From Devosia sp. (GTDB taxonomy: Bacteria; Pseudomonadota; Alphaproteobacteria; Rhizobiales; Amorphaceae): a stretch of DNA of 24,000 nucleotides. A program made the position numbers and the translations under genes. The notes below the pieces were generated by a model. That model made no database searches. It had not been told where the DNA came from and worked only from the letters and a program-made list of their open reading frames with translations. Where the stretch lies: positions 640,835 to 664,834 of the forward strand of contig CP136534.1 of NCBI GenBank assembly GCA_051016205.1. The letters are read 5' to 3'. Below are positions 3,542 to 21,692 of the stretch, piece after piece; positions within the stretch are counted from its first letter, which is position 1, and each line of letters begins with the position of its first letter.

Positions 3542-6091
3542 TTACGAGTATGTCGCTTCTTTGGACTTGAAGGATAAATGATGTACCGCACGGGGGGCGT
3601 CGGCAATCTTGCGGATGTTTCCCCACGTCTGTTTATAATTGGGGATGATCAGCTCGTTGACACCGGCGTTCACAACATTGCCTTGGACGCCCGTCGGATA
3701 GGCGAATAACATGAATGTCTCGCCGGGGCGGGCAGTCGGGGTTGGATACACCATCGCCTGGGTGGACCCCGCATCGTTATAAACCTCGACGAGATCGCCT
3801 TCTTCGACGCCGATACCTGTCATGTCGTCAGGATTCATCTCGATATACGGGAACGGCCAGCGGTCCATGACAAACTCGTTCTCGTCGTCAAGGTAAGCCG
3901 ACTGCCACACGAGGTTTGCACGGCCGTTGTTGATGAGGAAATCGAACTCTGCCTTCTGCTCCTCCTTTCCGGGTGCCCTGAGGCCTCCCCACTCGGCGAC
4001 GCAGAAGCGCGCGCGACCGTCGTCAGTGGAGAAGTTTCCGTCCGCATACAGGCGTTTTGTTCCGACAATCTCCCCGTTCTCGAAACCGACTGCCGGCTCT
4101 TGGAACCCGTTGGTGCCCATTTCGCGCAGACGCTCGTATGTGACGAACTCGCCGCCACCTGCGTGTGTATGGTAGCCATCCATAAACACGTCCTCGTTTG
4201 TCTGCCAATCGAACTTTCCGGCGAAGGCTTCCGCACGTTCGGCATTGCCAAGATCTCGGAAAACCCGCTCCAGATGGTTGGCTATACGCGCTGCGATGAG
4301 CCCGTCGCCCATGGCCTGGCCGGGAGGGTCCATGTATCTCTCGGTAAGCCGCATCCGTCGCTCGCCGTTCATGGACGTGATCGGCACCTCGCCCGCGGTG
4401 GCAGCCGGGAGCACGACATGCGCGGCTTCGCCGATCTTCGTCGGCACAATGTCGATGTCGACCACGAAGAGGCCGCCATTCGCTATCGCTCCCATTATCG
4501 CCTCGACCATCGCCTCTCGATCGCCGTATGGCACGGAACTCATGGCGTCCTTTACCTTGTCAGTGCGCTCTTTGTAGACGCGCTTGAATTCAAATGCGTT
4601 GAGCGTCGTTTTGTAGTGATCGCAGGCCCAGACGTGATGCACGCCGCCTTCACCTTGTATGAGGAGTTGATCGATGTAGGGTGCTGGTCGGCCGATGAAT
4701 GCGTCGGATGGGCGGACATATCCTTCTTGGTGGCCACCAAGGCGCACGCAGCCGCCACCCGGCCTTCCAATGTTACCAGTCGCGAGCGCTAGGTTTACCA
4801 AGGCACCATTGGTGCGGTAGTTGTCGTTGCCCCAAATCAGCCCCTTTTCGTAGCAAAACATCGTTCTTCTTCGGGCGCCACCGTCCTTGGGCTCAGCTAT
4901 CCAACGCGCGGCCTTCTCCATGTCTTCGACTGAGACGCCTGTAATCTCCGCCGCTTCTTCGAGGGTTGTTCGATTGGCATCGAGCGCGGTTTGGAAGTCC
5001 GTCAAGGGTGCCACTTCACCCTTCGACAGCGGTTTGCGCGGTAGTTCCGGAGACCCCTCGCTAGCGCTCGCCGTGGGTTCGGCTGTGCGCGCGTCGATGA
5101 ACTCTTTGTCGATCCAGCCCTGATCGGCGATGTGCGACATCAACGCGTTTAGAAGTACCATGTCGGTACCACTATTGATGGCGAGATGGAGGACGTTGTC
5201 GGCGCCTGCCTCAATCTCGCACGCATTAACGGAAACTGTACGTCGCGGATCGACGATGACAATCCTTCCGCGTTCGTGCGGTTCGTTGGGCAGCTCTTGC
5301 CGTTTTCTCGGGAGCGAGCCACCATTGAGGTTGGGTACCCAGTGGTTCAGGAAATAGTTAGTCTGTGCTTCGACTGGATTTGCGCCAACCACCATGATTG
5401 TGTCGGCAAGCTGCGCATCCTCATAGCAGTTATTGAGTTCGCCGACGCCCATGTCCCGGGACGCGTGAACCTCCGAGTTATACGCTGGCCGATTGTGGAT
5501 CCGAATGTTCCGAATCTTCAGCGGGTCGAAGTAGAGCTTACCTGTCCCCCAGGTGAACTCATAGCCGCCACCTGCACCGCCGTGGTCAGCCGCCGAGACG
5601 AAAAGGCCATCCTCGCCCTGCTCCTCGATGACCCTTGCCGTCACTTGCGCGACGAGATCGAGCGCATCGTCCCAGCCTGTGGGTTGCATCTGGCCGTAGC
5701 GCCAGACCATTGGATCTTTCAGGCGCTGTTGCTGAGTTCCGGACGTTTCCGAGTGGCTCAATTCAGCAATCCGTGCGCCGCGCGCAGACGCGAGACCTGA
5801 ATTGACCGAGCAGCCGTAGTCCGGCTTTACCACTATATGGACGTCTTTGCCGTCCTGCTTTACGACGTTGTACATGGATGGCGAATACCAAGCCTCCGAG
5901 TTGATGGCTTGCTGGCTTGTCAGGTCAACGCCGAAGGCATTTTGGTCAGGAGCTGTTCCCCCTTGCTGTTTAGCCGGCCATGTATAGGCGTGATAGCCGC
6001 ATCCGACGATACAGTAGTGACAGACGACATTGTGCTTCTTGGCGTCGACGGGTGGGATCGGCAGCCTGTCAATGTTTCTTTTGAAAGCCAT
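3542..6091 (-). CDS. aioA: arsenite oxidase large (molybdopterin) subunit AioA
   Basis: Starts at the internal ATG 6091 (MAFKRNIDRLPIPPVDAKKHNVVCHYCIVGCGYHAYTW), 1 nt after the aioB stop. The N-terminal C-x2-C-x3-C motif (CHYCIVGC) is the AioA 3Fe-4S signature. A molybdopterin oxidoreductase body follows (849 aa). The 90 codons upstream in the track ORF overlap aioB and are an artefact. Confidence 0.95.
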   Translation of the reverse strand: MAFKRNIDRLPIPPVDAKKHNVVCHYCIVGCGYHAYTWPAKQQGGTAPDQNAFGVDLTSQQAINSEAWYSPSMYNVVKQDGKDVHIVVKPDYGCSVNSGLASARGARIAELSHSETSGTQQQRLKDPMVWRYGQMQPTGWDDALDLVAQVTARVIEEQGEDGLFVSAADHGGAGGGYEFTWGTGKLYFDPLKIRNIRIHNRPAYNSEVHASRDMGVGELNNCYEDAQLADTIMVVGANPVEAQTNYFLNHWVPNLNGGSLPRKRQELPNEPHERGRIVIVDPRRTVSVNACEIEAGADNVLHLAINSGTDMVLLNALMSHIADQGWIDKEFIDARTAEPTASASEGSPELPRKPLSKGEVAPLTDFQTALDANRTTLEEAAEITGVSVEDMEKAARWIAEPKDGGARRRTMFCYEKGLIWGNDNYRTNGALVNLALATGNIGRPGGGCVRLGGHQEGYVRPSDAFIGRPAPYIDQLLIQGEGGVHHVWACDHYKTTLNAFEFKRVYKERTDKVKDAMSSVPYGDREAMVEAIMGAIANGGLFVVDIDIVPTKIGEAAHVVLPAATAGEVPITSMNGERRMRLTERYMDPPGQAMGDGLIAARIANHLERVFRDLGNAERAEAFAGKFDWQTNEDVFMDGYHTHAGGGEFVTYERLREMGTNGFQEPAVGFENGEIVGTKRLYADGNFSTDDGRARFCVAEWGGLRAPGKEEQKAEFDFLINNGRANLVWQSAYLDDENEFVMDRWPFPYIEMNPDDMTGIGVEEGDLVEVYNDAGSTQAMVYPTPTARPGETFMLFAYPTGVQGNVVNAGVNELIIPNYKQTWGNIRKIADAPRAVHHLSFKSKEATYS

Positions 6092-6092
6092 T

Positions 6093-6620
6093 TCAGCCCC
6101 CCAACACATTCGAAGTACGACCGTAGATGAGTTCGTCGACGCCTTCGGCAAAAATGTTGCCTGAACCATCGACCCGCAGAACGAATTGAGGCAAGTTTTG
6201 TGTAGCCTGCCCCCAGGTTTGCTGGCCACCTTTTTCAGGATCGAAGATCGAATAGTGACCTCGGCAGTTGAAGGTTCGCTGTTCCTTGGAGTAAATGAGA
6301 GGCCATCCCTTGTGGGGACAAAGAATCGAGAACCCGACAATGTCGGTATCGGGACCGACACCGTCTGGGACAGCCAAACCGAGTTTCAACAAGACGCCGG
6401 GAGATTGTGAGTCTGGGTAGGCGACAGTGAGCGGTTCGTTGACCTCGAGATCGGCGACGTTGGCAAGCCGATTTGATGGGTAGTCGACCAGCGCCGCGGT
6501 CTGAGCTGTTTGGGCGCTGGCCGGCATAACCGAGGCACTTGCCGCGCCGACGGCTGCTACAGCACCGCCTCGCAGGAATTGACGTCGGCCGACATCGACC
6601 AAGCGGTTGCAACCTTTCAT
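6093..6620 (-). CDS. aioB: arsenite oxidase small (Rieske) subunit AioB
   Basis: 175 aa. Has a twin-arginine signal (GRRQFLRGGAVAAVGA) and Rieske ligand boxes CPHKG and CRGHYS. Lies directly upstream of aioA. Confidence 0.95.
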   Translation of the reverse strand: MKGCNRLVDVGRRQFLRGGAVAAVGAASASVMPASAQTAQTAALVDYPSNRLANVADLEVNEPLTVAYPDSQSPGVLLKLGLAVPDGVGPDTDIVGFSILCPHKGWPLIYSKEQRTFNCRGHYSIFDPEKGGQQTWGQATQNLPQFVLRVDGSGNIFAEGVDELIYGRTSNVLGG

Positions 6621-6657
6621 GGCGTTTCCCCGAGTTGCCTTTTTTCGACGTTGTCAA

Positions 6658-6686
6658 ATTAAAGACCAGTTCCAAAGCAAACGCAA
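6658..6686 (-). promoter_or_regulatory. candidate sigma70-type aioB promoter (TTGCGT-N17-TTTAAT)
   Basis: Minus strand has TTGCGT (6686-6681), a 17-nt spacer, then TTTAAT (6663-6658), about 38 nt upstream of the aioB ATG. Read by eye only. Confidence 0.3.
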
Positions 6687-6716
6687 TGGATCAAAGGCAC
6701 TTCCTACGTTAGGTGT

Positions 6717-6732
6717 GGCGTTTTAATTGCCG
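6717..6732 (-). promoter_or_regulatory. candidate sigma54 -24/-12 element (CGGCAA-N5-ACGC)
   Basis: Minus strand reads cGGCAAttaaaacGCc, with the correct GG-N10-GC register, about 97 nt upstream of the aioB ATG. The -12 TTGC is degraded to ACGC. The cognate activator lacks GAFTGA (see findings), which weakens this reading. Confidence 0.3.
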
Positions 6733-6820
6733 AACATAAGTAATACATGTTTGGAGTTCCGAACATATTAATAAGACTTATGGCTGTATATAGAATTAAA
6801 TGAAAATTAGGTGTTTAAGA

Positions 6821-8113
6821 CTAATGTAGAGAATGCCTTCGCATCTTCTCCCAAAGTGTCGTTCGCGAAATCCCAAGTAACGACGCTGCCTCTTGCAAGC
6901 GACCATCGGCGTCTTTCAGTGCGCCGGCGATCGCTCGCCTTTCTGCGGCATTACGCACGTCGGTGAGCGCGCTCCCGCCGATGGTCTCGCTCCGAGCCGT
7001 TGTCGGAAAAAGGTCGCTGGGTAAGAGCCACGGCCCCTCTGCCATGGCACACGCACGTTCAAGCCGATTGCGAAGCTCCCTAGCGTTACCCGGCCACTCA
7101 TGCAAACGTGCAGCCTCGATCGCGAGATTAGACAGGCCGCGCAGCACACGCTTTCCACTGCCGCTGTCTTTGAAGTGATCAAAGTACAGCCTGGCAAGCC
7201 ACTCAATATCGAGTGGTCGGGAATGCAACGGAGGAAGTGCCACTGAGAATGTGCTGAGGCGGTAAAACAGCTCGTGCCGCAGCGTACCGCCGGGTTCCTG
7301 ATCACGGGCAAGAGCAACAATTCGGGCTCCGAGCGGCCGCGCCTCGGTCTCCCCAATGCGGCAGAAAGACCCTCGGTCTAAGAGTTCCAAGAGCTTCAGT
7401 TGCACCGCTTTCGGTGCGTCGGATACCGCGTCGAGAAGGAGCACTCCGTCCGCAGCTCGTTCAGCGTAGCCGATATGATCATGGGGTCGGCCAACGATCG
7501 AGGCGGCAGCGTGCCCAAAAATTTCTACCTCAAGAAGTTCCGGTGGGATCGCTGCGCAGTTTACTGCCACAAAAGGTGTATTTGGACGGGATAACTCGTG
7601 AAGGCGACGTGCGCACACCTCTTTCCCGACGCCGATCGGTCCGGTGATGAGGACCGGAGTATCGCTGTCTGCGATGCGCGAAAGGGTCCTCTCAATTTCG
7701 ACCATCTCGTTGGATGCACCAAGCGTACACCGCGTTTCGGCCTTTTCGGCGAAACGCCCGAGACGATCCAATAGCTCGCTTAGCGAGAAGGGTTTCGTCA
7801 GGTAGTCGCTCGCCCCCCGACGCATTAAATCAACGGCCTGATCGATGTCAGCGTACGCGGTCATGAAGAGAAATGGTGCAGGATGCGGCAAGCGAGCCGC
7901 TTCGCAAAAAACCTCGTCGCCAGAGCGTCCGGGCAGCCGGATATCGCACAGGACGACATCCGGCGGGCATTCGGCGAGCCCCTTCAGTGCCTCTTCTCCG
8001 CAGCGCCACCAAGTTACGTCTATCCCTTCGAGGGACAAGCCTTGAACAAGCGATTCGCCCATAATCTTATCGTCTTCAATGATCGCAACGCACAGCGCAT
8101 CATGCGGCTTCAT
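6821..8113 (-). CDS. aioR: NtrC-family response regulator AioR (receiver + AAA+ + HTH) with an atypical AAA+ core
   Basis: The ATG at 8113 is preceded by GGAGG at 8 nt; the track start 8143 is a TTG. Contains a receiver domain (IIEDD...VVLCDIRLPG), Walker A GPIGVGKE, the WPGNARELRN region and a C-terminal Fis-type HTH (LLGISRTTLWEKM). Confidence 0.9.
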   Translation of the reverse strand: MKPHDALCVAIIEDDKIMGESLVQGLSLEGIDVTWWRCGEEALKGLAECPPDVVLCDIRLPGRSGDEVFCEAARLPHPAPFLFMTAYADIDQAVDLMRRGASDYLTKPFSLSELLDRLGRFAEKAETRCTLGASNEMVEIERTLSRIADSDTPVLITGPIGVGKEVCARRLHELSRPNTPFVAVNCAAIPPELLEVEIFGHAAASIVGRPHDHIGYAERAADGVLLLDAVSDAPKAVQLKLLELLDRGSFCRIGETEARPLGARIVALARDQEPGGTLRHELFYRLSTFSVALPPLHSRPLDIEWLARLYFDHFKDSGSGKRVLRGLSNLAIEAARLHEWPGNARELRNRLERACAMAEGPWLLPSDLFPTTARSETIGGSALTDVRNAAERRAIAGALKDADGRLQEAASLLGISRTTLWEKMRRHSLH

Positions 8114-9602
8114 GCCAGGTACCTCCGCGTTTGAAGTCGACAATAGGAATGGATAGAACGATTTTTGTGCCCACGGTGCATCGGTTCCAATCGATCGTGC
8201 CGCCGCTGTCGCTAACGGCTCTACGCACCATCCAGAGCCCGAGCCCGCCGTGATGGCCGAGCGGCCTCTTCGCGTCTGTGTCCTTTAGGATAGCCGCAGC
8301 TGCGTCAGGGATGCCGGGACCGCTATCCTTGACGGCAATCACGAGAATTGAGTTCCCTTCGGATATGAATATGTCGACCTCGATTTGAGTGCCGGCAGGC
8401 GATGCTATAGCTGCATTCAGCACTAGGTTGAGGAGTACCTGTCTCATTGGGGATCGCGGCACTGCTATTGCACCTTCGAGTGCGATGCGCCACGTTGCTG
8501 TCAATGAGCGCCGTCTGATCTCGAGACTCGTTAGCGTCCTTACGTCATCGACATCGCTCGGTCCGAAACCTGGCTTACCCCGTTCCGGGCGGTATACGTG
8601 GAGCGTTGCCTTGACGATGTCGCGAATGTCAGCGAGCCCTCGATCGATTAGTCGAGCGCTCCGTTGCCGAACCGACTCGTTATGTCCGTGTCTTTTTATC
8701 GTATCGACGGCGTTGAAGAGACCGCCGAGCGGATTGTTGATCTCATGGGCCATCCCTGATGCAAGGCGACCAAGGTCGGCCAATCTCTCCTCCTCAGCAA
8801 GCTGTTTTTCTAGAAGTCGCCTATCCTTCTGGGCGCGCGCCAGTGCGTTGTAGTGGGTGAAGAGGCGATGGCCCTCAGTGCCAATAGCAGGCATCCTCGG
8901 CAGGGGGATTTCGCTCGGGCCGGTCTGCGCATCCACGGCAAGATGTCTTGTGAGGATCTGCATCGGCTCAAGAAGCTTGATCACGACCAAGAATCCCAGC
9001 GCCGCACAACCGAGCGTGAGAAGGCCATTTGTCAAAAGCAAGAGCACCGTCACCTGGTGCCGCTCGGCGATCAGCGCTTCCACATCTATCAGTGTGGAAA
9101 TCGTTCCCACGTTCCGGCCCTCTGACGTTAGTGTTCGCCTTAGGGTCGCAGTTCCGGCGGCCGCATCGATGTGCGCGCCGCCGTCCAGCTTAGCGGCGCG
9201 AAAACTTGAGGGGAGCTCTCCGAGGGTGGGCGCTGTCGCCGGATCGGTTGCCGCGATGATTTGCCCAGCACTGTTCGTTACAACGGCCTCAAGAGGGCGC
9301 ACAGCGCCATTAGTTTCCAGCGACCGCTCAAGTGTTTCGAAAGCCGCCCATATGTCTTCGCGGGCAACGTAGGGAGTGAGAGCGGGTGCGAGCCCAGCGA
9401 GGTATGCATTCGCCAGATCGTCGATTTGCTGCGATTGCGTTTGGATGAGGCGGGACATAACGCGTTCCGACACAGCCACGCCGACGAAGATCATAAGGAT
9501 TGCAACGACCAGCGGGACCTTAATCACGAGAGGAAGCTTGGCCGCCCATTGCATCGGCAATCGTATCCAGTAGGATACTCCTGGGGGACGTTGATGTTTC
9601 AT
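8100..9602 (-). CDS. aioS: sensor histidine kinase AioS
   Basis: Two N-terminal TM segments flank a periplasmic loop. Has an H-box (MAHEINNPLGG), N-box (LLNLVLNAAIAS) and G-boxes (DSGPGIP, GGLGLWMV). Its ATG overlaps the aioX stop as ATGA (9602-9599). Confidence 0.85.
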   Translation of the reverse strand: MKHQRPPGVSYWIRLPMQWAAKLPLVIKVPLVVAILMIFVGVAVSERVMSRLIQTQSQQIDDLANAYLAGLAPALTPYVAREDIWAAFETLERSLETNGAVRPLEAVVTNSAGQIIAATDPATAPTLGELPSSFRAAKLDGGAHIDAAAGTATLRRTLTSEGRNVGTISTLIDVEALIAERHQVTVLLLLTNGLLTLGCAALGFLVVIKLLEPMQILTRHLAVDAQTGPSEIPLPRMPAIGTEGHRLFTHYNALARAQKDRRLLEKQLAEEERLADLGRLASGMAHEINNPLGGLFNAVDTIKRHGHNESVRQRSARLIDRGLADIRDIVKATLHVYRPERGKPGFGPSDVDDVRTLTSLEIRRRSLTATWRIALEGAIAVPRSPMRQVLLNLVLNAAIASPAGTQIEVDIFISEGNSILVIAVKDSGPGIPDAAAAILKDTDAKRPLGHHGGLGLWMVRRAVSDSGGTIDWNRCTVGTKIVLSIPIVDFKRGGTWHEAA

Positions 9603-10495
9603 CCTAGGCCGGCCGTAAGCATTTTTTGCCGGATCGGCTCGTAAAGTGACGCATCTCTCCGATCAAAACCATCAAGATGCAGCATCGCAAGAACCACTTG
9701 GCCGAGCGCATCTTCTTTTAGGGCCAAAACCGCGGCTTCAACCGCGGCTGTTGCCGCGGGATCTGCGGGTTCCCGTGGTGCAGCAATCGGAGGAAAGCCA
9801 AGCCACTCCGATTTCCAGACCGCCTTTACTTGAGCCCCAAGAGAAGGGTCGACAGCCGCGAGAACGTCGGCGACATAGCCGTCGACCGAGCCAGACTGCG
9901 CAAGTCCCGTCGCGACCGCCCGAACGACGTTTTCGTGACCGTAGGTGAAAAAGGTACGGGAGAAGTGTTGGTCCGGCTGTCTCGAGACAGTGGCAAGGTG
10001 AGCACGCGTGACAAGGTATCCGGAGTTCGAGTCAGGATCGGAGTATGCATGAATGTCTCCGACAAGATCGACAACGTCATGAGCGGCGCGGTTCGCCTGC
10101 GTGATGATATAGGACTGGTAGAGCGGCCGACCCTGCCATATCGGCACAGCAAGCAGCTTTAGAGCGCTTCGAAACCGGACGAACGGGTACCCGCAGATCC
10201 ACGCCGCGTCGAGCTCACGTGCGACAAGAAGCGTAGTGACTTCTTGGTAGGTCCGGCGCGATACGAGCTCGATGGAACGCCCCGTTGCGCGCTCTAGGTA
10301 AGCACGCATCGCTGCCAAAACCTCGGCATCGGTCGCGAGGAAAACAGGCGTTAAGCCAAAACGAATTGGCCGGCTAGCGCGAAGGCGCCGGCCAGCGAAG
10401 GGTGCAGTGCCCAAGGCGAAAACCAGAGCTCGCCGTGTGGGTCCACAAGCTAGGGTCGATGCCTTCAATGGCACACGCGTTTGCCCCCAACTCAA
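9599..10495 (-). CDS. aioX: periplasmic PhnD-like binding protein AioX
   Basis: Type-2 periplasmic binding protein fold signature (IRFGLTPV...ELDAAWICGYPFV...SNSGYL). The N-terminus is signal-like (TRRALVFALGTAPFAG). It is the first gene of aioXSR, as in model clusters. The exact start is uncertain: TTG 10495 or GTG 10474. Confidence 0.8.
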   Translation of the reverse strand: MSWGQTRVPLKASTLACGPTRRALVFALGTAPFAGRRLRASRPIRFGLTPVFLATDAEVLAAMRAYLERATGRSIELVSRRTYQEVTTLLVARELDAAWICGYPFVRFRSALKLLAVPIWQGRPLYQSYIITQANRAAHDVVDLVGDIHAYSDPDSNSGYLVTRAHLATVSRQPDQHFSRTFFTYGHENVVRAVATGLAQSGSVDGYVADVLAAVDPSLGAQVKAVWKSEWLGFPPIAAPREPADPAATAAVEAAVLALKEDALGQVVLAMLHLDGFDRRDASLYEPIRQKMLTAGLG

Positions 10496-10636
10496 GTTTC
10501 ACGCTTCGTCCGGCGTGTTCGATGGAAATGTAGCAAAGGTTTTTCTCGGACGACAGGGCAACACACTTCACCACCGCACGCAGGACGGCCCCAGCTGAGT
10601 CGTTCCAGTCTAGGGTTGACACAAATCCGACAATCG

Positions 10637-10652
10637 TGGATTCATGAATCCA
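10637..10652. promoter_or_regulatory. perfect 16-bp palindrome TGGATTCATGAATCCA, candidate ArsR operator
   Basis: The sequence is self-complementary when read directly. It ends on the A of the arsR-arsC start codon and covers the putative -10. Confidence 0.45.
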
Positions 10653-11521
10653 TGAATATAAAGAACGAAAGCGAAGCACTTGCGGCGCTGGGCCATCCGG
10701 GCCGTCTCGCCGTGTTTCGGCTATTAGCTCGACGCATGCCACAAGGGGTCCGACCTAGTGAGATTGCCGGCGCGCTTCGCCTGAAGCCAAACACACTGTC
10801 TGTCTATGCAGGCATCCTGACGCGCGCTGGGCTTTTGAATACCTGGCGCGACGGTCGCTCTGTCTACTACGGCGTGAACTTGGACCGGTTCGGTGAGCTT
10901 GTAAGATATCTAGTCCACGATTGTTGTCACGGGCGGCCAGAACTCTGCCTTGATGACTCAGGGGACGAAGAAGTTACGGTCGCCGGGCGCTCCGGACCGT
11001 ATCATGTACTATTTGTCTGTACGGGAAACTCAGCCCGATCAATCTTTGCGGAAGCGTTGCTTGGCCGGATGGGACATGGCCAGTTTGTTGCCCATTCGGC
11101 GGGAACTAAACCCTACTCGCGCGTCAACCCCAAAGCCGCATTGGTCTTGCAATCGGTTGGCGACGATCCGGGTAAGTACTCACCGAAATCGGCCAATAAG
11201 TATCTCGACGATGGATCCGCCAGAATGGATTTCGTCGTCACGGTCTGTGACCGAGCGGCGAACGAAGATGCACCGCCCTGGCCGGGACGGCCAATGATTG
11301 CGCATTGGGGTGTATCCGACCCCGTCAGTGCTGGCAATGACAACCAATTAAAGCCCTTCGAGATCGCCTTCCGAGCACTCGAGCACAAGGTTAAGCGCTT
11401 CGCCAAGCTGCCGCTTGACACCATGCGACCGACCGAAATCCAAGCCGCTCTCGACGACATCGGCCAAAACCGAGACAAGCGCGGCCCTGCGCCACGTGGC
11501 GCCAGAAACCATCAAGTGTGA
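10652..11521 (+). CDS. arsRC: ArsR-family metalloregulator fused to an LMW-PTP-type arsenate reductase (ArsC) domain
   Basis: Starts at the internal ATG 10652 of track ORF 10481..11521. The N-terminal winged HTH (LGHPGRLAVFRLLA...SEIAGALRLKPNTLSVYAGILTRAGLL...GRSVYY) ends in DCCHGRPELC. It is followed by an LMW-PTP/ArsC domain: P-loop VLFVCTGNSARS, TVCD and HWGVSDP. Confidence 0.85.
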   Translation: MNIKNESEALAALGHPGRLAVFRLLARRMPQGVRPSEIAGALRLKPNTLSVYAGILTRAGLLNTWRDGRSVYYGVNLDRFGELVRYLVHDCCHGRPELCLDDSGDEEVTVAGRSGPYHVLFVCTGNSARSIFAEALLGRMGHGQFVAHSAGTKPYSRVNPKAALVLQSVGDDPGKYSPKSANKYLDDGSARMDFVVTVCDRAANEDAPPWPGRPMIAHWGVSDPVSAGNDNQLKPFEIAFRALEHKVKRFAKLPLDTMRPTEIQAALDDIGQNRDKRGPAPRGARNHQV

Positions 11522-12171
11522 ATGGCGGAGTAGCGATCTTGGCACGGCTAGCTGTCAACGGACTTGGCCAGATTGATAAACTTGTGCTTCGGCGTCTGAT
11601 CCGAACGAGCGGATGTCATGAGATTGCACTTTTGAACGCTCCCGCCGGCAACCCGGCTCAGCACACGACGCTTATAGAGTTTGATTCCGCCCATGGTCGC
11701 TGGCTGGAAGCGTTTGGCTTCGATCATGGAAGCCTCAGCGTTGACGTTACGCTATCGCCGTTTGTCCAGGTGAGACGGATCGAAGACCTCCCGCTCGCCA
11801 CCCATGGAATTGACATCGTGGTAGATTGCACTGGCGTCTTCACATCCACGGAAGAGGTCGAGCTTTCCTTTAGAGCTGGCGTACAAAAAGCCGTGATATC
11901 GGCGCCGATAAAAAATGGTGCGCTCTACCTCGTGATAGGCGTCAGTCAACATCTCGATAAAGTTGGTAAGCGCCGAAACATCACGGCTGCAATTTGCACA
12001 AAGAGCTGCGGCGCCTCAGTCGTCAGAGTCCTTCACGAAGCGATTGGGATCAAGTGCGACTCAATCACTACAATCCACGACTTCAGAAACACACAAACAA
12101 TCGTTGATCACCCTGCAAGAAACAATGACTGGGAGGTCTCGCCGTGTCGAAATGGCGTGTCTATTCTGTAG
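11518..12171 (+). pseudogene. truncated, degenerate glyceraldehyde-3-phosphate dehydrogenase-like gene
   Basis: 217 codons, collinear with about the first 200 residues of GAPDH (VNGLGQIDKLVLRRL..., IDIVVDCTGVF, AICTKSCGASVV = SCTTNC region, ITTIHDF..TQ..VD....DW). The NAD loop GRIGR is GQIDK. The whole C-terminal 40 percent is missing. The GTG start overlaps the arsRC stop as GTGA. Confidence 0.6.
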
Positions 12172-13181
12172 TTGCATTTACTCTAGGTGGTCTGGGAGCC
12201 GCTGTCGCCCAAGAACCTATTGATATCGTCGGATCATCGACTGTGTATCCCTACACCAAACTTGTAGCTGATGCTTTCGCCGAACAGGGCAAGCACCCGC
12301 CACCAACCATTCGCTCGACGGGCACAGGTGGCGGGATGGCTGTCTTCTGCGCAGGCATAGGACCCGATTACCCAGACATGACCGGGGCATCACGGCCCAT
12401 GAAGCATTCCGAGTGGGAGATATGCCGCGACAACGGCGTGTTCGACATAACCGAGATGATGATTGGATATGATGGACTCACTCTTGCCACACCTCGGACG
12501 ACAGATGACGATTTCATCCTAACCCTTCAGGATCTCTACACAGCACTCGCTAAAACCGTGCCCATCGACGGAGAGCTCAGACCAAATCCCCATACTACGT
12601 GGGCCGACGTTCGCTCCGAACTACCCGATATCCCTATTTCCGTTATTGGCCCGCCACCGACGTCAGGCACCCGGGATTCCTTCGAGGAGCTGGCGATGCA
12701 GGGGGGCTGCCGGATGTATCCGGTCTTGGCGGCCCTTGAAGATACTGACGGGGATGAGTGGACGCGTATCTGCTCAACGATTCGCACAGACGGTCCGTTT
12801 GTTGAGGGCGGTGAGGATGATGAAGAAATCGTACGGGTTCTCTCCGAAAAGCCCGGTACGTTAGGTATATTTGGCTACTCATACTACTATCAGAACACCT
12901 CGATACTAAAGCCTGTTTTGATCGAGGGTATTTCGCCAGATTTTCTATCGATCTCAACTCGAGAATACCCGCTTTCTCGCCCTTTATATCTATATATTAA
13001 AAATGAGAGCCGAGAGTTTACTCCTGGAATTGTAGACTTTATAAATGAATTTTTGTACGGAGCCTCGCCAGGGGGATATTTGTTTGTGTCAGGTCTTGTG
13101 CCTGTTCTTGACGATGTTGAGCGGGAAACAATCGCCGCCTACGCAATTGACGGGGAAGAAATGCTACCGCCCGCAGACTGA
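12144..13181 (+). CDS. pstS: PstS-family (PBP-like 2) phosphate/oxyanion-binding protein, paralog 2
   Basis: GTG 12144 lies 7 nt after GGGAGG. Has a signal peptide (VVAFTLGGLGAAVAQE). Oxyanion-site motifs GSSTVYPYT, STGTGGGM, TGASR and PPTSGTRDSF are present. Collinear with the pstS at 15996..17042. Confidence 0.85.
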   Translation: MSKWRVYSVVAFTLGGLGAAVAQEPIDIVGSSTVYPYTKLVADAFAEQGKHPPPTIRSTGTGGGMAVFCAGIGPDYPDMTGASRPMKHSEWEICRDNGVFDITEMMIGYDGLTLATPRTTDDDFILTLQDLYTALAKTVPIDGELRPNPHTTWADVRSELPDIPISVIGPPPTSGTRDSFEELAMQGGCRMYPVLAALEDTDGDEWTRICSTIRTDGPFVEGGEDDEEIVRVLSEKPGTLGIFGYSYYYQNTSILKPVLIEGISPDFLSISTREYPLSRPLYLYIKNESREFTPGIVDFINEFLYGASPGGYLFVSGLVPVLDDVERETIAAYAIDGEEMLPPAD

Positions 13182-13255
13182 GGCATCTTTCCGAATATAA
13201 GATTTGATTCGCCAAGGATCGGCTCATTTGATGATCCTCGATCCCACATTTCCTA

Positions 13256-14545
13256 TCACCAATTTCGCTGAAGTCGTGCTCTCAAGAAGACCGCAATTGC
13301 ATTCATAGTTATGAGGAAGCCGAGCAAAACCAGGATGCCTGCCGACGTCCGTGAAACAAACCCGCGCTCGGGACTGTCCGCCCAAATGTATATCTGCGTA
13401 GGCAGCGCCGTGGCTGGATCCGCAATCCCTCCTGGGGGGCTCGTTAGAAATGCGTTCATCCCGATCAGAAGGAGGGGCGCCGTTTCCCCGAGGGCCTGTG
13501 CGAGGCCAATGATGGTGCCGGTTAGAATGCCGGGTAGCGCGAGGGGGAGGACGTGATGCACAATCATCTCATGTTTGGACGCGCCCATCCCAAGGGCCGC
13601 TTCGCGAATGGAAGGGGGTACTGACCGGAGCGCCGATCGCGTAGCGATGATTATGGTAGGCAACGTCATCAGTGCGAGCACCATACCACCAACCAGGGGC
13701 GCTGATCGTGGCAGCCCCAAGAAATTGAGAAAGACCGCAAGCCCCAACAAGCCGAATATGACCGACGGAACCGCGGCCAAGTTATTGATATTGACCTCTA
13801 CGATATCGGTCAGTCGGTTCTTCGGCGCAAACTCTTCAAGGTAAACAGCTGCTGCGACTCCCATCGGGAAACTCAAAAGGAAACAGACGAGGAGGGCGTA
13901 AAAGGATCCGACAATCGCGCCCCGCAGGCCAGCGAGCTCGGGAAAGCGGCTATCGGAATTGAGAAAAAGACCCCAGTTGAAGGGTGCGGAAACGAGACCC
14001 TGTTCCTTTAAGCGATCGAACATATGGATCTGAAAGTCATTGATCCGTCGCCGGTTTTCGGGTGTCTCTCGTAGAATGCGTCCTTTGTTGAACTGGTCGG
14101 CAATGTCCGCAGCAGGAATTTCAACTTCTATCGTTTGCCCGACGACGGACGGATCACTAAGAAGTTCATCTCGTAGAAGGAATGGAGCGGGCTGCGTGTA
14201 GAGCTGCCTAAATTGCCTAAACTCTGCGTTACTGAGATCCGAAAATTCTCTTCTGAGGCTATCATCGAATACAGATCGCCAGTCGCTTGCGAAGAAGTTC
14301 TCTGAGTTGACCTCCGCCGGATCAACGTATATTTGTGCCCGTATTTCGGTCTGAAGGAATGCAGGATAACCTGTGGCAACTAATGATACAATCAAGGTTG
14401 CCAACATGCCGAAGGCAACGATAATACTACCGATCCCAAAGATGCGTAGGTAGAGGTCAAGCCGACTGCGCCTCTTTCTTAGCTGCTTGACATGATCGGA
14501 ATCCCAAGCCACCGACCCCGCCCGTGGTGCGGCGATATCACTCAT
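13256..14545 (-). CDS. pstA: phosphate ABC transporter permease PstA
   Basis: The ATG at 14545 overlaps the pstC stop by 8 nt (ATGAGTGA). Multi-TM permease with the EAA-type loop (ALRSVPPSIREAALGMGAS). Long alphaproteobacterial-type form. Confidence 0.9.
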   Translation of the reverse strand: MSDIAAPRAGSVAWDSDHVKQLRKRRSRLDLYLRIFGIGSIIVAFGMLATLIVSLVATGYPAFLQTEIRAQIYVDPAEVNSENFFASDWRSVFDDSLRREFSDLSNAEFRQFRQLYTQPAPFLLRDELLSDPSVVGQTIEVEIPAADIADQFNKGRILRETPENRRRINDFQIHMFDRLKEQGLVSAPFNWGLFLNSDSRFPELAGLRGAIVGSFYALLVCFLLSFPMGVAAAVYLEEFAPKNRLTDIVEVNINNLAAVPSVIFGLLGLAVFLNFLGLPRSAPLVGGMVLALMTLPTIIIATRSALRSVPPSIREAALGMGASKHEMIVHHVLPLALPGILTGTIIGLAQALGETAPLLLIGMNAFLTSPPGGIADPATALPTQIYIWADSPERGFVSRTSAGILVLLGFLITMNAIAVFLRARLQRNW

Positions 14546-15917
14546 ATTGTTCCCGCCAGCGTTTGACGATCGAAATCGCTGCAATGTTGATGCCAAACGT
14601 CAAAATGAACAGTGTGAGCCCCAACGCAAAAGCAGCCAGAGTCTTCGGTGAGTCAAACGCCGTGTCTCCAATGAGGAGCGTGACAATCTGTACTGTTACA
14701 GTCGTGACGCTGTCTATGGGGTTGAGGGTAAGCGTTGCGAATATACCGGCCGCCATCACGACAATCATCGTCTCACCGATTGCGCGGCTCACCCCCAGCA
14801 GAATGCCACCCATAATCCCTGGTAACGCCGCCGGCACGAGAACCTTGAGCATTGTCTCTCCGCGAGTCGCCCCAAGTGCAAGTGAGCCATCGCGCAGCGA
14901 CCTTGGGATCGCGGAAATAGCATCGTCGGAGAGTGATGAAATGAACGGGATGATCATGATACCCATTACCGCTCCGGCAGCAAGTGCACTGTTTGGCGAT
15001 ACCGCAAGACCTAGAATCTGGCCAAACTCCCGGAGCGCGGGCGCGACCGTGAGGACGGCAAAGAAGCCGTAAACGACCGTCGGAACACCCGCCAATATTT
15101 CCATGATTGGCTTGACGACCGAGCGGGTGGACGGCGTCGCAAACTCGACCAGGTAGATGGCTGTGAAGAGGCCAATCGGCGTCGCTACCAGCATTGCGAT
15201 TGCCGCGATAAGGACTGTCCCGATGAAAACAGGAGCAATTCCAAACGCCCCCGATGCGGCGACTTGATCTTCACGTAGCGGAATCTGGGGCTCCCAGTTG
15301 AGGCCAAATAAGAATTCTTGAATAGGGACCATCCCGAAAAAGCGGACGGCCTCGTATACGAGCGACGCAAGAATCCCGAGAGTCGTCATGATCGCCGCGG
15401 CAGCGCACAAAAACATGAGTGCCGATATCACCCGCTCGAAGCGGTTACGGGCCCGAAAATCCGGACCGAGCTGAGAACGCGCAACGACCAGCGCGATCAG
15501 CATGACGCTGATCGCGACAACAAGCATCGCCCAGTTCGCAATGTGAGTCCAACGCACGAGTGTTTCCGCCGCAATGAGAATCTCACGCGATGGCGCGCCG
15601 AAAGTCCGTCCTTCTGCCGCGTTTGCTATTTGTTGCGAAATCAGCGCTGCCTGCGCAGGCGTCTTTCCCTCCAGTGCGCTTGCCGGAAGTGTTTCGAGAA
15701 CGAGGCCTGCAATGACGTTGTCTTCGAGCAACAGCCAAAGTATCACTAGAACGAGAGTGGGCACGCCGACCCAGACTGCAACGAAAGCTCCGTGATAGAT
15801 GGGCCGCGAATGGATCCGGTCGGTCGAAGCGGCTGCCAACGCGAGCCCCTTGGATCGACCGATTAAGTAAGACGTCGCAACAAAGATCGCGATTAGCAAA
15901 AACGCGTAGCCCGCCAT
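14538..15917 (-). CDS. pstC: phosphate ABC transporter permease PstC
   Basis: 459-aa multi-TM protein with the permease loop SAIPRSLRDGSLALGATR. Lies between pstS and pstA. Confidence 0.9.
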   Translation of the reverse strand: MAGYAFLLIAIFVATSYLIGRSKGLALAAASTDRIHSRPIYHGAFVAVWVGVPTLVLVILWLLLEDNVIAGLVLETLPASALEGKTPAQAALISQQIANAAEGRTFGAPSREILIAAETLVRWTHIANWAMLVVAISVMLIALVVARSQLGPDFRARNRFERVISALMFLCAAAAIMTTLGILASLVYEAVRFFGMVPIQEFLFGLNWEPQIPLREDQVAASGAFGIAPVFIGTVLIAAIAMLVATPIGLFTAIYLVEFATPSTRSVVKPIMEILAGVPTVVYGFFAVLTVAPALREFGQILGLAVSPNSALAAGAVMGIMIIPFISSLSDDAISAIPRSLRDGSLALGATRGETMLKVLVPAALPGIMGGILLGVSRAIGETMIVVMAAGIFATLTLNPIDSVTTVTVQIVTLLIGDTAFDSPKTLAAFALGLTLFILTFGINIAAISIVKRWREQYE

Positions 15918-15995: not shown

Positions 15996-17042
15996 CTAAC
16001 TCTTCGGCGCTTCCATCGCAACCCCTTCGACCGCGTTACTTTGAACCCCAGCGCGGCGCTCGTCGCCCAGCGGCGTCAGGCCGCGCTGCGAAAGGTAGCC
16101 GCCAGTCTCAAGGGCCGCATCCGACACGTACTCTTCGATGAACGCCTGAAGATTCGGGATCGCGTCGCGATGGGCGTTCTTGATGTAGAAGAAGATTGGG
16201 CGCGCGATGTCGTAGTCGCCAGATGCGATCGTGTCGAAATTCGGCTCAGTATCATTCACCGGCACGGCCTTCAGACTGTCTTGGTTTTCGTATAGGAAGG
16301 AGTAGCCGAAAATACCAAGCGCGTTCGGGTCGGAGATGAGACGCTGAACGATGAGGTTGTCGTTCTCACCGGCCTCAATGAACGGTCCGTCCGTCCGCAT
16401 CCGCGAGCAGACTTCTTCCCATTTGTCCTCGTCGGCCTCTTCCATCTCGGCCAGCATCTCGAACCCATTGCACCCATCGTGCATGGCGAGCTCGACGAAC
16501 GCGTCGCGCGTGCCTGACGTCGGCGGTGGGCCGAAGACTGTGATGTCAGTGTCAGGGAGTTCAGGGTTGATCTCGGACCACTTGGTGTAAGGGTTGTCGA
16601 CAAGTTCGCCGTCCACGGGCACCTGTGCCGCGAGAGCCATGAAGAGCTCTTGCTCGGTGAGGCCAAAGTCCACAGCACCTTGCGCATGCGCAATGGAAAG
16701 GCCGTCGAATCCGATCAGAACCTCGGTAATATCCGTGACGCCGTTAGATTGGCAGTCTTCCCATTCGGACGACTTCATCGAGCGGGACGCGCCGGTGATG
16801 TCGGGGAAGTCGGGTCCGACGCCGCCGCAGAAGATTTTCATGCCACCGCCGGTGCCGGTCGATTCGACGATCGGAGACGGAGCCCCGGTCGACTGGGCGA
16901 ATTGCTCAGCAACGGCTTGCGTGTATGGAAATACGGTCGACGATCCAACGATGCTGATCTGATCCCGAGCCTGAACCGGACCAGCGACAGCGACAGCGCC
17001 AACGGCGAGCGCTGTAGCGGTGAGAAGGGCATACTTGCTCAT
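15996..17042 (-). CDS. pstS: phosphate ABC transporter substrate-binding protein PstS, paralog 1
   Basis: The internal ATG 17042 (MSKYALLTATALAVGAVAVAGPVQA signal) is preceded by GGGAGAG. Same motif set as paralog 2: GSSTVFPYT, STGTGGGM, TGASR, PPTSGTRDAF. Confidence 0.9.
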   Translation of the reverse strand: MSKYALLTATALAVGAVAVAGPVQARDQISIVGSSTVFPYTQAVAEQFAQSTGAPSPIVESTGTGGGMKIFCGGVGPDFPDITGASRSMKSSEWEDCQSNGVTDITEVLIGFDGLSIAHAQGAVDFGLTEQELFMALAAQVPVDGELVDNPYTKWSEINPELPDTDITVFGPPPTSGTRDAFVELAMHDGCNGFEMLAEMEEADEDKWEEVCSRMRTDGPFIEAGENDNLIVQRLISDPNALGIFGYSFLYENQDSLKAVPVNDTEPNFDTIASGDYDIARPIFFYIKNAHRDAIPNLQAFIEEYVSDAALETGGYLSQRGLTPLGDERRAGVQSNAVEGVAMEAPKS

Positions 17043-17313: not shown

Positions 17314-18351
17314 CTATGGAGTATGTTGGCCGTTCCGAATCACCCCCAAAACCATCCCATTTGTTTTTACAAGCTCGCACCACTCCTTCGCGGCCTCGGT
17401 GAGGAGTTCGGCGGTGTCCATGTCCTCAGCCAACTGGACGGTCAGGAGATCACGCAAAAGGTTCATCTCACCGCCCAGCACATCGGCAAAGGCGTCCGCC
17501 CCACTTGCGCGCGCGAGGATGGTGGCATCGCTGACCACAGGCACCAGGACTTCCGCGATGAACGCGTCATACTCGGCCTCATCGACCTGCCGTTCGATCC
17601 GCATGACGCGGGTTTCGCCGTCTTCGTCGAACGCCGCCAGTGGGAACATCCACATCTGATAAAGGTGCCCGAGCGTCTGGAAGAATCGCGTGCCAGCGAG
17701 CGGGTAGTGAACGCTTTGGCCCGCCTTGACGGTTTGGACTTCGATCAAAGCCATGACCGCGACTATGCTGGCGCATTTCAAGCGTAGCGCCTGGTGCGCG
17801 TCGTCGGCATAGACGCCAAACAGGAGGTCGGTGGCATCGTTGTCCGCCTGCATTTCCAAGCATGGACGAACCTTTTTGCGTTCGTCCGCCGGCAGAGTCG
17901 GGAATGCCAAGTCGGTCTGCTTGGCAAATGACAGGATGTCCAACCCCTCCTCGGTGACAGGATCGGAGAGGCCGGCAGCACCTGCCAGTGCCACGTGACC
18001 TAATTTCACATGCATGAGTTCGTGGAGCACCAGCCAGGCCAGCGATACGTCTGTTAACTCATCGGCTGCATAGCCTTCGGGGATATCGCCTTCCGCAAGA
18101 AGTTTCGGATCATCCAGACCGCGCGACCACAAGGCGTCGAGGTGGTCGACCGTCCCCGTGCTGATCCGGACAACAGTGCCATCCCCAATCGGCACAACCC
18201 GGGCGGAGAACTCCTCCGTTGCCTCCATCTCCAAGGTGGGTGGATTTGGCAGGGGTTCACCCAATTCCTGCTCGTGCTGTTTCAAAGCAGCCGCAAACGC
18301 CGTTTCGAGACGGTCTTCGTGGGTTCGCGATGCAGACGTGGGGTCGGCCAT
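17314..18351 (-). CDS. HExxH zinc-metallopeptidase-like protein (ImmA/IrrE COG2856-like core)
   Basis: 345-aa ORF with LAWLVLHELMHVKLGH and, 44 residues after the HELMH motif, LEMQADNDATDLLF. This matches the HExxH...ExxAN/DxxA..LL pattern of ImmA/IrrE-type gluzincins. The remainder is unrecognised. Confidence 0.7.
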   Translation of the reverse strand: MADPTSASRTHEDRLETAFAAALKQHEQELGEPLPNPPTLEMEATEEFSARVVPIGDGTVVRISTGTVDHLDALWSRGLDDPKLLAEGDIPEGYAADELTDVSLAWLVLHELMHVKLGHVALAGAAGLSDPVTEEGLDILSFAKQTDLAFPTLPADERKKVRPCLEMQADNDATDLLFGVYADDAHQALRLKCASIVAVMALIEVQTVKAGQSVHYPLAGTRFFQTLGHLYQMWMFPLAAFDEDGETRVMRIERQVDEAEYDAFIAEVLVPVVSDATILARASGADAFADVLGGEMNLLRDLLTVQLAEDMDTAELLTEAAKEWCELVKTNGMVLGVIRNGQHTP

Positions 18352-18743: not shown

Positions 18744-18890
18744 GGTCTCGCCCCCGAGACGGCGCGGCGCAGGGCGCCGCACTCCAAAGGTGTCGTTCGG
18801 GGCGCTCGCCGCTGGGCAAGGGTTCATGCGCGGAAAGTGTCCTTCGGGAGGCTTGCGCAATTCCACAAACCCAAACTCAGGAGACAATCC

Positions 18891-21131: not shown

Positions 21132-21692
21132 TCAGCTTCCCCTGTCGAACCGCTTGATGGAACGTGTCAGCGTCCATGGATGAACGCGAAGTTGCCTCGC
21201 GATGTCCTTCAGCGTCATTGTCCCCAAAGCGATGCGCAACTGGGCCGAGCGAACCTGCTCTTCGCTAAGCTTCGGCGGGCGGCCAAGCCTCACGCCGCGG
21301 GCCCGCGCTGCTGCAAGCCCTTCGCGTGTGCGTTCGGAGATTTTTCGCCGTTCCCGCTCAGCGGCGGCGGCATTGACCTGATAGGCGTAGTTCCCATCAG
21401 CGGTAAGCGTGTCGACGACAAAGTTCACCGCTTTCAGGCAAACCCCACGTCCCCGCAGCTGCTCGTCGTGCACGATGGCGTCAGCGGTAGATCGGAAGGC
21501 GCGGTCCAGATCCCAGACCAAGAGCGTGTCGCCACGCTTCAGCCGCCGCAGGACCGTTTCAAAGATCGGACGATGATCGGACACCGCCGAAAGACGCTCC
21601 ACATGGAGCTCGTCGCACAGGCCCCTAAGGCCGTCCACCTGGCGGTCGGGCCGCTGCTCCTTCGTACTCACTCTCAGATATCCGATAATCAT
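21132..21692 (-). CDS. serine recombinase (resolvase/invertase family)
   Basis: MIIGYLRVSTKEQ carries the catalytic Ser motif. Also has the DRQ, LLVWDLDRAFRS and ERERRKISERTREGL motifs and a C-terminal HTH (LKDIARQLRVHPWTLTRSI). 186 aa. Confidence 0.9.
   Translation of the reverse strand: MIIGYLRVSTKEQRPDRQVDGLRGLCDELHVERLSAVSDHRPIFETVLRRLKRGDTLLVWDLDRAFRSTADAIVHDEQLRGRGVCLKAVNFVVDTLTADGNYAYQVNAAAAERERRKISERTREGLAAARARGVRLGRPPKLSEEQVRSAQLRIALGTMTLKDIARQLRVHPWTLTRSIKRFDRGS

Follow-up and report, generated by a model that had tools for sequence, protein, structure and literature searches.

Arsenate enters cells through phosphate transporters, and the way in which phosphate uptake is combined with arsenate exclusion is only partly understood. 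Arsenic-responsive pstS genes repressed by ArsR, pst operons within arsenic islands and the GAPDH-ArsJ efflux pathway are already known. Namely, in Agrobacterium tumefaciens 5A ArsR1 represses the pstS1 gene beside the aio-ars island (Kang et al. 2012, 2016; Rawle et al. 2021, PMC7965956; Li et al. 2013, PMC3834237), and the GAPDH-ArsJ pathway was described as consisting of two components (PMC7826186). ArsR control of pst had been known in one model strain, and it had been unclear whether this was a quirk or a general design. Here, we analysed a 24,000-nucleotide stretch of the Devosia sp. contig CP136534.1 (the whole of it is called the window below), which had the gene content of an arsenite-oxidase island, and in particular its pstS2 gene for a PstS-type periplasmic binding protein. 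We found that PstS2 belonged to a distinct PstS clade, which in all lineages examined was hard-wired into a cassette for arsenate efflux and outlasted the loss of the efflux genes at least twice independently. This suggests that arsenic sensing and the capture of phosphate are linked in a way not described before; our coverage of the literature, although incomplete, revealed no paper that treated PstS as a part of the arsRC-gapdh-arsJ operon or reported a PstS clade specific to it. We consider it probable that pstS2 is a structural gene that survived the degradation of an ArsR-controlled arsenate-resistance cassette and that it encodes an arsenic-induced phosphate receptor.

The clade, which we called group A, was recognised among the best 120 homologs of PstS2. 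It comprised 20 sequences (PstS2 together with P0002-P0019 and P0027) that carried the signature GEDDExIV, and the other 101, including the PstS1 protein of the same window, formed group B with the signature GENDNLIV. In a neighbor-joining tree, group A was monophyletic in 200 of 200 bootstrap replicates, and so was the pair of PstS2 and its sister P0002, whose 74% identity was the highest of all pairs in the clade. PstS1 and PstS2 shared 51% identity and were placed in different clades of this tree as old paralogs. The two groups had three fixed differences, S179 (Ala in group B), D225 (Asn) and E227 (Asn), each present in 100% of group A and 0% of group B. S179 was located three residues past the ligand residue T176, and D225 and E227 were found at the start of helix 226-235. 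All three are likely sites of specialisation. We take the D225/E227 loop to be the equivalent of K175-G-N177-D178-G in the Escherichia coli PstS. In a cryo-electron microscopy structure, K175 of the E. coli PstS contacts N273 of PstC (PMC12976172). Altered docking on PstC via D225 and E227 may be followed as a lead, not as a result.

A profile search of 1.84 billion proteins clustered at 50% identified P0003 (595 bits) as the group-A representative, and the next match (449 bits) already belonged to group B. Since a single group-A representative stood out at this level of clustering, the clade is small. A metagenome scan with the pattern E[AG]GEDDExIV returned 29 loci, three of them PstS-like: L101 (the contig of L007), L112 (a fragment) and L123. 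In the last of these (754-1770), a 44%-identical PstS-like protein with GEDDEVIV was encoded behind a fragment of a Na/Pi cotransporter gene rather than behind ars genes. Thus, the N-to-D change also arose outside the ars-linked clade, and the EDD motif alone is not diagnostic there.

Gene neighbourhoods were obtained for ten group-A lineages (Table 1), and in all ten of them an ArsR-family gene headed the operon to which pstS belonged. The full arsRC-gapdh-arsJ-pstS cassette was present in seven of the ten, with about 30 nt or an overlap ahead of pstS. Because this spacer was so short in the relatives, the membership of pstS in the operon was ancestral. The gapdh and arsJ products of the relatives L002 and L003 passed the corresponding NCBIfam cut-offs (GAPDH, NF033735, 535 versus 450; ArsJ, NF033734, 543 and 546 versus 400). 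In three contexts, the window, Acuticoccus kandeliae and L011, an ArsR-family gene was located directly upstream of group-A pstS and arsJ was missing. The L011 locus came from the sample of the window and contained a third paralog (P0019, group A, SEDDEEIV) behind an ArsR/SmtB regulator with VCIGCD; this minimal arsR-pstS module was situated in an ordinary chromosomal neighbourhood.

As a group-B control, we collected 80 loci from species-representative genomes with the pattern IVGSSTV[YF]P, which was shared with canonical PstS and yielded no group-A locus. None of these 80 pstS genes was located behind arsR, gapdh or arsJ, and nearly all of them were followed by pstC, pstA and pstB. Four of the 80 had ars genes past pstB, a looser pst-ars neighbourhood that was described previously (PMC3834237). 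In these four (L071 and L073 from Alcanivorax and Alcanivoracaceae, L039 from Sulfitobacter, and L041), either an arsRC-like gene (35-42% identical, partial query match), sometimes together with acr3, or arsJ or acr3 in convergent orientation was located just past pstB of pstSCAB.

In the window, the cassette was degraded between arsRC and pstS2. Searched with three intact GAPDH orthologs by tblastn, it gave an alignment at 11539-12123 only, which corresponded to residues 1-196 of about 336, and the NF033735 model matched this stub with 171 bits (cut-off 450) over positions 2-189 of 323. ArsJ homology was absent from the whole window, as was homology to Acr3, ArsH and the Grx-type ArsC, so that of the detoxifying functions only the ArsC domain of ArsRC was left. 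From position 12128 rightward, ACTGGGAGGTCT (12128-12139) aligned with the L002 spacer gagACTGGGAGGTCTtaca-ATG, and leftward of the junction the sequence aligned with gapdh. These alignments indicate that a deletion of about 1.7 kb took the whole of arsJ along with the 3'-terminal ~140 codons of gapdh and some of the spacer, and that the ancestral ribosome-binding site of pstS was kept. Accordingly, the GGGAGG motif was conserved 5' of pstS in L002, L003, L012 and L013. An earlier note on this DNA had placed the Shine-Dalgarno sequence and start codon of pstS2 inside a GAPDH remnant, and GGGAGG and the GTG at 12144 were indeed both within the GAPDH-like open reading frame. This position of the start followed from the deletion and was not a special wiring. 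The note was also correct that pstS2 has no separate promoter space, which had been the case even before the deletion.

The stub itself was decaying. Its catalytic SCTTNC was changed to ICTKSC, the NAD-binding GRIGK to GQIDK and LLND to LLNA, and its identity to the L003 GAPDH was 55% versus 77% for the sister L002. The corresponding PstS values were 59% for PstS2 versus 57% for the sister. Synonymous divergence (dS) was saturated and dN/dS was not usable directly; instead, we relied on identity and on relative nonsynonymous divergence (dN). Between the window and L002, dN was 0.282 for gapdh and 0.173 for pstS (ratio 1.6), compared with 0.13-0.17 and 0.36-0.40 in intact pairs (ratio 0.35-0.45), corresponding to a roughly 4-fold acceleration of the stub relative to pstS. 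Of 94 near-invariant columns, 7 were violated in PstS2 and 6 in its sister. Because near-invariant columns, identity and relative dN revealed no acceleration, we conclude that pstS2 is under purifying selection beside a pseudogene.

A second deletion was found in A. kandeliae (L013). At 9762-9971 of this locus, a 69-aa open reading frame joined the decayed N-terminus of GAPDH in frame to the C-terminus of ArsJ. Judging from its different breakpoints, this gapdh-arsJ deletion is independent of the one in the window, and arsRC and pstS were kept there too. In both loci an open frame was left that bridged arsRC and pstS, which could reflect translational coupling or avoidance of polarity. The 217-codon frame of the stub was also considered as a selected feature; by a rough estimate its length was only mildly unlikely by chance, and we make no claim for it.

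Since pstS was located directly behind arsJ in seven of ten lineages, group-A PstS might serve the GAPDH-ArsJ pathway only, for example by recapturing phosphate or 3-phosphoglycerate from hydrolysed exported 1-arseno-3-phosphoglycerate, and then pstS2 would be a leftover. The weak binding of some organophosphates by the SAR11 PstS (dissociation constant for glycerol-3-P ~105 uM; PMC12421899) is in line with this, as are the erosion of the operon, with arsJ gone, gapdh decayed and an ArsC cysteine lost, and the AT-ward synonymous drift of pstS2. However, pstS was intact in all three contexts without arsJ, and PstS2 had neither an accelerated rate nor an excess loss of invariant residues while the adjacent stub decayed. 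We regard such a restricted role as quite unlikely.

The regulator at the head of the operon, ArsRC, matched the Pfam model LMWPc, and the NCBIfam models arsC_pI258 and HTH_metalloreg both remained under their cut-offs. Its cysteine triad DCC[RH]GRPELC and its P-loop CxGNSxRS were invariant in five orthologs, and the triad presumably resembles the C-terminal As(III) site of the Acidithiobacillus ArsR. At ArsRC residue 207 (window 11268-11272), NEDAPP was found versus NE[DE]CP in four orthologs, that is, the presumed third (resolving) cysteine was replaced by Ala here only. The perfect 7-4-7 inverted repeat over the arsRC start codon occurred nowhere else in the window. With 0-3 changes, it also immediately preceded the arsRC ATG in L003, L007, L012 and L013; we infer that it is a putative ArsRC operator. 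In these four relatives, the order TTGNCN, 17 nt, TATCCA, 6 nt, ATG was observed with the palindrome centred on the -10 element, and this arrangement suggests that the arsRC mRNA is leaderless. The TTGACA hexamer of the window was situated about 8 nt farther upstream than that of the relatives.

A sigma-70 consensus scan of the plus strand at 11521-12143 found no promoter-like site, and no Pho box was present there within 3 mismatches. Between arsRC and pstS2 there was no credible terminator and no hairpin that folded better than shuffled sequence, and terminator-like sites were as numerous as expected by chance. The best Pho box of the window preceded pstS1. Thus, the earlier proposals that pstS2 was wired into an ArsR-headed operon and that the Pho box belonged to its paralog were both supported, and the conservation of the arrangement in ten of ten lineages supports an ArsR wiring of pstS2 that would be ancestral. 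Alternatively, pstS2 could have its own promoter in the gapdh stub, either constitutive or Pho-controlled, with a merely positional link to ArsR. About 620 bp of non-functional upstream DNA could have evolved one, and alphaproteobacterial promoters fit the sigma-70 consensus poorly and can be missed by a scan. On the other hand, neither a promoter-like site nor a Pho box was found in this segment, the tight spacing in the relatives made operon membership ancestral, and the frame of the stub was open up to and beyond the pstS2 start, as expected for continued translation. A separate promoter is in our opinion very unlikely. A hairpin (CGCCGTGTCGAAATGGCG) with a T-rich run around the pstS2 GTG (12140-12159) had no folding advantage over shuffled sequence (z = 0.12) and probably has no significance; the same was true of the pstS2-pstA spacer fold (z = 0.78).

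pstS2 came last in arsRC-(gapdh stub)-pstS2 and did not head a pstS-pstC-pstA-pstB operon. It had a GTG start and encoded 345 aa, and the exact protein was recorded from one Logan contig (run SRR25441019). Its signal peptide, read by eye from the sequence, had a basic N-terminus, a hydrophobic core and an AVA-Q site without a lipobox cysteine; the same architecture was present in P0002, and residues 1-20 were disordered in the AlphaFold model. PstS2 matched Pfam PF12849 (PBP_like_2) with 117.3 bits (cut-off 27) over residues 22-304. With NCBIfam TIGR02136 (PstS family), it scored 126.1 bits, below the cut-off of 206.6, and canonical PstS1 was also below it (146.2), indicating that the model covers the alphaproteobacterial/SAR11 branch poorly. 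The AlphaFold model had a predicted local distance difference test score of 83.5 and a predicted template modelling (TM) score of 0.77. In a fold search, the top 40 PDB matches were all phosphate-binding proteins, and the best match and closest solved structure was the SAR11 PstS (9JWY; TM 0.78/0.88, E 1e-62, 39% identity over the fold-search alignment).

The oxyanion-site motifs that had been listed as kept in PstS2 were all found at the residues given: GSSTVYPYT at 30-38, STGTGGGM at 58-65, TGASR at 80-84 and TSGTRD at 173-178. They mapped onto the seven ligands of the SAR11 PstS, such that S31, S32, T33, T61, S83, G175 and T176 of PstS2 corresponded to the 9JWY phosphate ligands S32, S33, T34, T61, S83, G174 and T175. 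These seven were invariant in alignments of 19 and 20 sequences, and the first-shell residues were the same in groups A and B. Both PstS2 and the SAR11 PstS had Pro in place of the Arg that is usual in E. coli-type proteins. Elias and colleagues are reported to have shown in 2012 a strong discrimination of phosphate from arsenate for Asp-type binding proteins with a low-barrier hydrogen bond. For the SAR11-type site, the reported ligands include neither Asp nor Arg and the cavity is enlarged (PMC12421899). Since PstS2 has SAR11-type ligands without the Asp, an Asp-based discrimination of arsenate cannot simply be assumed for it.

These features raise the possibility that PstS2 binds arsenate and either acts in the periplasm as a sink or sensor of As(V) or feeds As(V) into a Pst permease. 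Its gene belongs to an arsenic operon beside aioXSRBA, and in a published model PstS1 of an arsenite-oxidising Agrobacterium binds the As(V) made by AioBA (PMC7533571). Ligands without Asp or Arg, the enlarged cavity and the group-specific S179 next to the ligand helix would also be consistent with this function. However, the seven phosphate ligands did not differ between the groups, and import of As(V) would be futile under an arsenic-resistance repressor and alongside an As(V) efflux pathway. Moreover, a stoichiometric sequestration would, in our reasoning, achieve little against As(V) at environmental levels, and stand-alone cassettes existed without aio genes (L094, L096/L097). The last observation also means that the link to arsenite oxidase drawn in the earlier note was not general. 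Overall, an arsenate-binding PstS2 seems unlikely.

The codon usage of pstS2 differed from that of its paralog, as had been pointed out before. The G+C content at third codon positions (GC3) was 0.514 in pstS2 versus 0.714 in pstS1, and in a sliding window it dropped to 0.28-0.30 over codons 261-320. The codons quoted earlier were exact: pstS2 contained CGC CCT TTA TAT CTA TAT ATT AAA AAT and pstS1 contained CGC CCA ATC TTC TTC TAC ATC AAG AAC. All 40-codon windows over codons 261-320 were below every one of the 229 such windows in the other genes (mean 0.66, minimum 0.45). The composition anomaly of the 3' third of pstS2 is well beyond chance. Six orthologs lacked the dip, with GC3 of 0.62-0.95 over the same codons. 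The direction of synonymous change was skewed, with 21 GC-to-AT against 5 AT-to-GC changes in codons 241-320, and it was AT-ward elsewhere too. An independent acquisition of pstS2, proposed on the grounds of codon usage, was not supported by the phylogeny, in which the two genes were old paralogs of different clades, and the convergent block of the two recurred in other lineages. The second proposal, a mosaic or recombinant AT-rich tract, was also not supported: protein identity to the sister P0002 was 0.60-0.85 along the gene and 0.72-0.82 inside the tract, and the share of differing codons at conserved residues was uniform (0.53-0.69). An unsampled low-GC donor of the tract may exist.

The codon usage could also result from relaxed selection if pstS2 were a passenger without function that is turning into a pseudogene. 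Its 3' third was outside the GC3 range of all other genes of the window, the changes were biased from GC to AT and the neighbouring genes were degraded. Nevertheless, the 345-codon frame was intact with the signal peptide and all ligand residues kept, the identity to the sister was above that of any other pair in the clade, violations of near-invariant columns were at the level of the sister's and the AlphaFold model was confident. We find the passenger explanation hardly credible.

We therefore return to the arsenic-induced phosphate receptor, for which the following mechanism can be proposed. As the comparison of lineages showed, the ancestral operon comprised arsRC, encoding a predicted As(III)-sensing repressor-reductase fusion, together with gapdh, arsJ and pstS as one ArsR-controlled unit. 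Transcription would start at the arsRC promoter, with the 7-4-7 repeat as the ArsRC operator, and binding of As(III) to the triad Cys91/92/99 would cause derepression. The transcript would then run through the translated gapdh stub into pstS2. The PstS2 protein would be exported via its signal peptide, would hold a tetrahedral oxyanion by seven Ser/Thr/Gly ligands as in the SAR11 PstS, and would most likely hand phosphate to a PstC/PstA permease, either from the adjacent pstS1CA or a housekeeping one. In this way, the phosphate supply could stay selective while arsenate competes for the uptake systems.

Several observations weigh against this mechanism. The first-shell residues were identical in groups A and B, and sequence cannot separate phosphate-selective from arsenate-tolerant binding. 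In E. coli-type proteins, Asp carries the discrimination of arsenate. The ligands reported for the branch of PstS2 are without Asp or Arg (PMC12421899). No pstB was found near pstS1CA, which makes the identity of the partner transporter doubtful. The AT-ward synonymous drift and the low GC3 may reflect weak expression or a relaxed selection on codons. At the regulatory level, HTH_metalloreg gave 41.9 bits on ArsRC versus a cut-off of 55, Pfam HTH_20 was weak in the orthologs, and the arsRC promoter was weak by the sigma-70 consensus, so that a consensus promoter scan did not pick TTGACA. The loss of the third ArsC cysteine implies that the operon as a whole is eroding. Finally, co-transcription of pstS2 and binding by ArsRC are predictions from gene anatomy and conservation.

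A further, more tentative possibility, which we consider somewhat doubtful, is that group-A PstS is an unrecognised dedicated fourth component of the cassette, that is, a new ars gene with its own biochemical role that was kept as an ArsR-to-PstS module after the loss of gapdh and arsJ. This role would be an extreme discrimination of phosphate over arsenate without the classical Asp hydrogen bond or, as the other option, the handling of the As(V) or 3-phosphoglycerate that ArsJ would release to the exterior.

The remaining parts of the window are listed in Table 1. The G+C content was 0.583 in the window versus 0.63 in another contig of the same sample, with a dip across 11.5-14.5 kb relative to the flanks. 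Together with the flanking Peptidase_U49, ParB_N and resolvase genes, the low G+C content suggests a mobile or integrated element. No pstB homology was detected in the window, and pstB, phoU and phoB did not follow pstA of pstS1-pstC-pstA; in most of the 80 canonical (group-B) loci pstB came after pstA. The arrangement of pstS1-pstC-pstA convergent with arsRC...pstS was intact in one other lineage, and a pstA remnant was left in two more. Namely, a pstS1-pstC-pstA set without pstB was also found in L003-L005 (11210-14996 in L003), and L007 and L012 retained the pstA remnant only. Comparison of 10400-13400 with plasmids by megablast gave no match, Rfam and tRNA scans revealed no RNA genes, and a repeat scan of 10300-13400 found only short, chance-like pairs.

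Table 1. Features of the window and gene orders at group-A pstS loci
Feature or locus	Coordinates	Strand	Description
moeA	2234-3472	minus	
aioA + aioB	about 3542-6620	minus	
aioR, aioS, aioX	6821-10495	minus	
-35-like hexamer	10616-10621	plus	TTGACA, putative arsRC promoter
Putative ArsR operator	10640-10657		perfect 7-4-7 inverted repeat ATTCATG-aatc-CATGAAT; overlaps arsRC start codon
arsRC	10652-11521	plus	ArsR-type HTH fused to low-molecular-weight-phosphatase-type arsenate reductase domain; divergent from aioX
GAPDH-like open reading frame	11518-12171	plus	217 codons
Decaying gapdh stub	11539-12171	plus	open frame 11518-12171
Deletion junction	12118-12128		gapdh codon ~197 to arsJ-pstS spacer
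pstS2 ribosome-binding site	12131-12136	plus	GGGAGG, 7 nt ahead of GTG
pstS2	12144-13181	plus	intact group-A (ars-cassette) PstS-type periplasmic oxyanion-binding protein
Predicted signal peptide	12144-12209	plus	MSKWRVYSVVAFTLGGLGAAVA / QEP
AT3-rich (A+T at third codon positions) tract of pstS2	12924-13103	plus	codons ~261-320, GC3 0.28-0.30
pstA	13256-14596	minus	Pfam DUF3333 + BPD_transp_1; convergent with pstS2
pstC	14538-15917	minus	Pfam DUF3708 + BPD_transp_1
pstS1	15996-17042	minus	canonical group-B PstS, GENDNLIV signature
Pho box	17104-17087	minus	CTGTCATACAGCCGTCAT; one mismatch to CTGTCAT-N4-CTGTCAT, best in window; 45 nt before pstS1 ATG
Peptidase_U49 (Lit-like)	17314-18351	minus	
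ParB_N-domain protein	18837-20603		
Resolvase	21132-21692	minus	
Window, gene order			arsRC, gapdh stub, pstS2
L002			gapdh-arsJ-pstS; contig begins just upstream of gapdh
L003-L006			moeA, then arsRC-gapdh-arsJ-pstS, convergent with pstA-pstC-pstS1
L007-L010			arsRC-gapdh-arsJ-pstS-arsC-acr3-arsH
L012			aioXSRBA, then arsRC-gapdh-arsJ-pstS-arsC-acr3-arsH
L095			like L012 plus extra arsR behind pstS
L094			stand-alone arsRC-gapdh-arsJ-pstS
L096/L097			stand-alone arsRC-gapdh-arsJ-pstS
L013 (A. kandeliae)			arsRC, 69-aa open reading frame, pstS
L011 (sample of the window)	5968-7391		arsR (123 aa), then pstS directly

PstS2 is a candidate arsenic-specialised phosphate receptor that can be tested. 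One genome contains the natural controls, namely PstS1 with a Pho box, PstS2 with a putative ArsR operator and the third arsR-pstS pair, and S179, D225 and E227 form a short list for mutagenesis. If PstS2 proved to be highly selective, it would reveal the way in which discrimination works in the SAR11-type site, for which no Asp ligand is reported, and it could be used in phosphate biosensing or in phosphate recovery from arsenic-rich water.

Among the systems described previously, the SAR11 PstS (CpPstS, 9JWY) carries an END motif similar to that of group B (GENDS) and is part of an ordinary pstSCAB system, whereas PstS2 has S179, D225 and E227 and belongs to an arsenic operon. The arsenic island of Halomonas sp. 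GFAJ-1 (Wu et al. 2018, PMC5930303) also combines phosphate-uptake genes, gapdh and major facilitator superfamily transporters, but unlike the window it has a complete pstSCAB (PMC5930303). What this island and the highly phosphate-selective binding proteins of Elias and colleagues have in common with PstS2 is the idea of capturing phosphate where arsenate is abundant. The closest likeness to the GAPDH-ArsJ efflux pathway (Chen, Yoshinaga, Garbinski and Rosen 2016) was seen in the relatives, which encode both proteins directly upstream of group-A pstS. The window retains the 5' 60% of the ArsJ-associated gapdh; in contrast to the described pathway, its arsJ was deleted and its gapdh was inactivated. 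Similar to A. tumefaciens 5A, the window has a second island-borne PstS that adjoins aioXSRBA and is linked to ArsR (a predicted link here), with a separate Pho-type system present. In A. tumefaciens 5A, pstS1 is induced by As(III) through the ArsR repressor and heads pstSCAB-phoU-phoB with its own promoter, and ArsR1 binds the pstS1-phoB1 intergenic region. In contrast, the ArsR-linked pstS of the window is a lone gene of another clade that lacks dedicated permease and ATPase genes and forms the distal end of arsRC-gapdh-arsJ, and the Pho box is found on the canonical pstS1 of the island.

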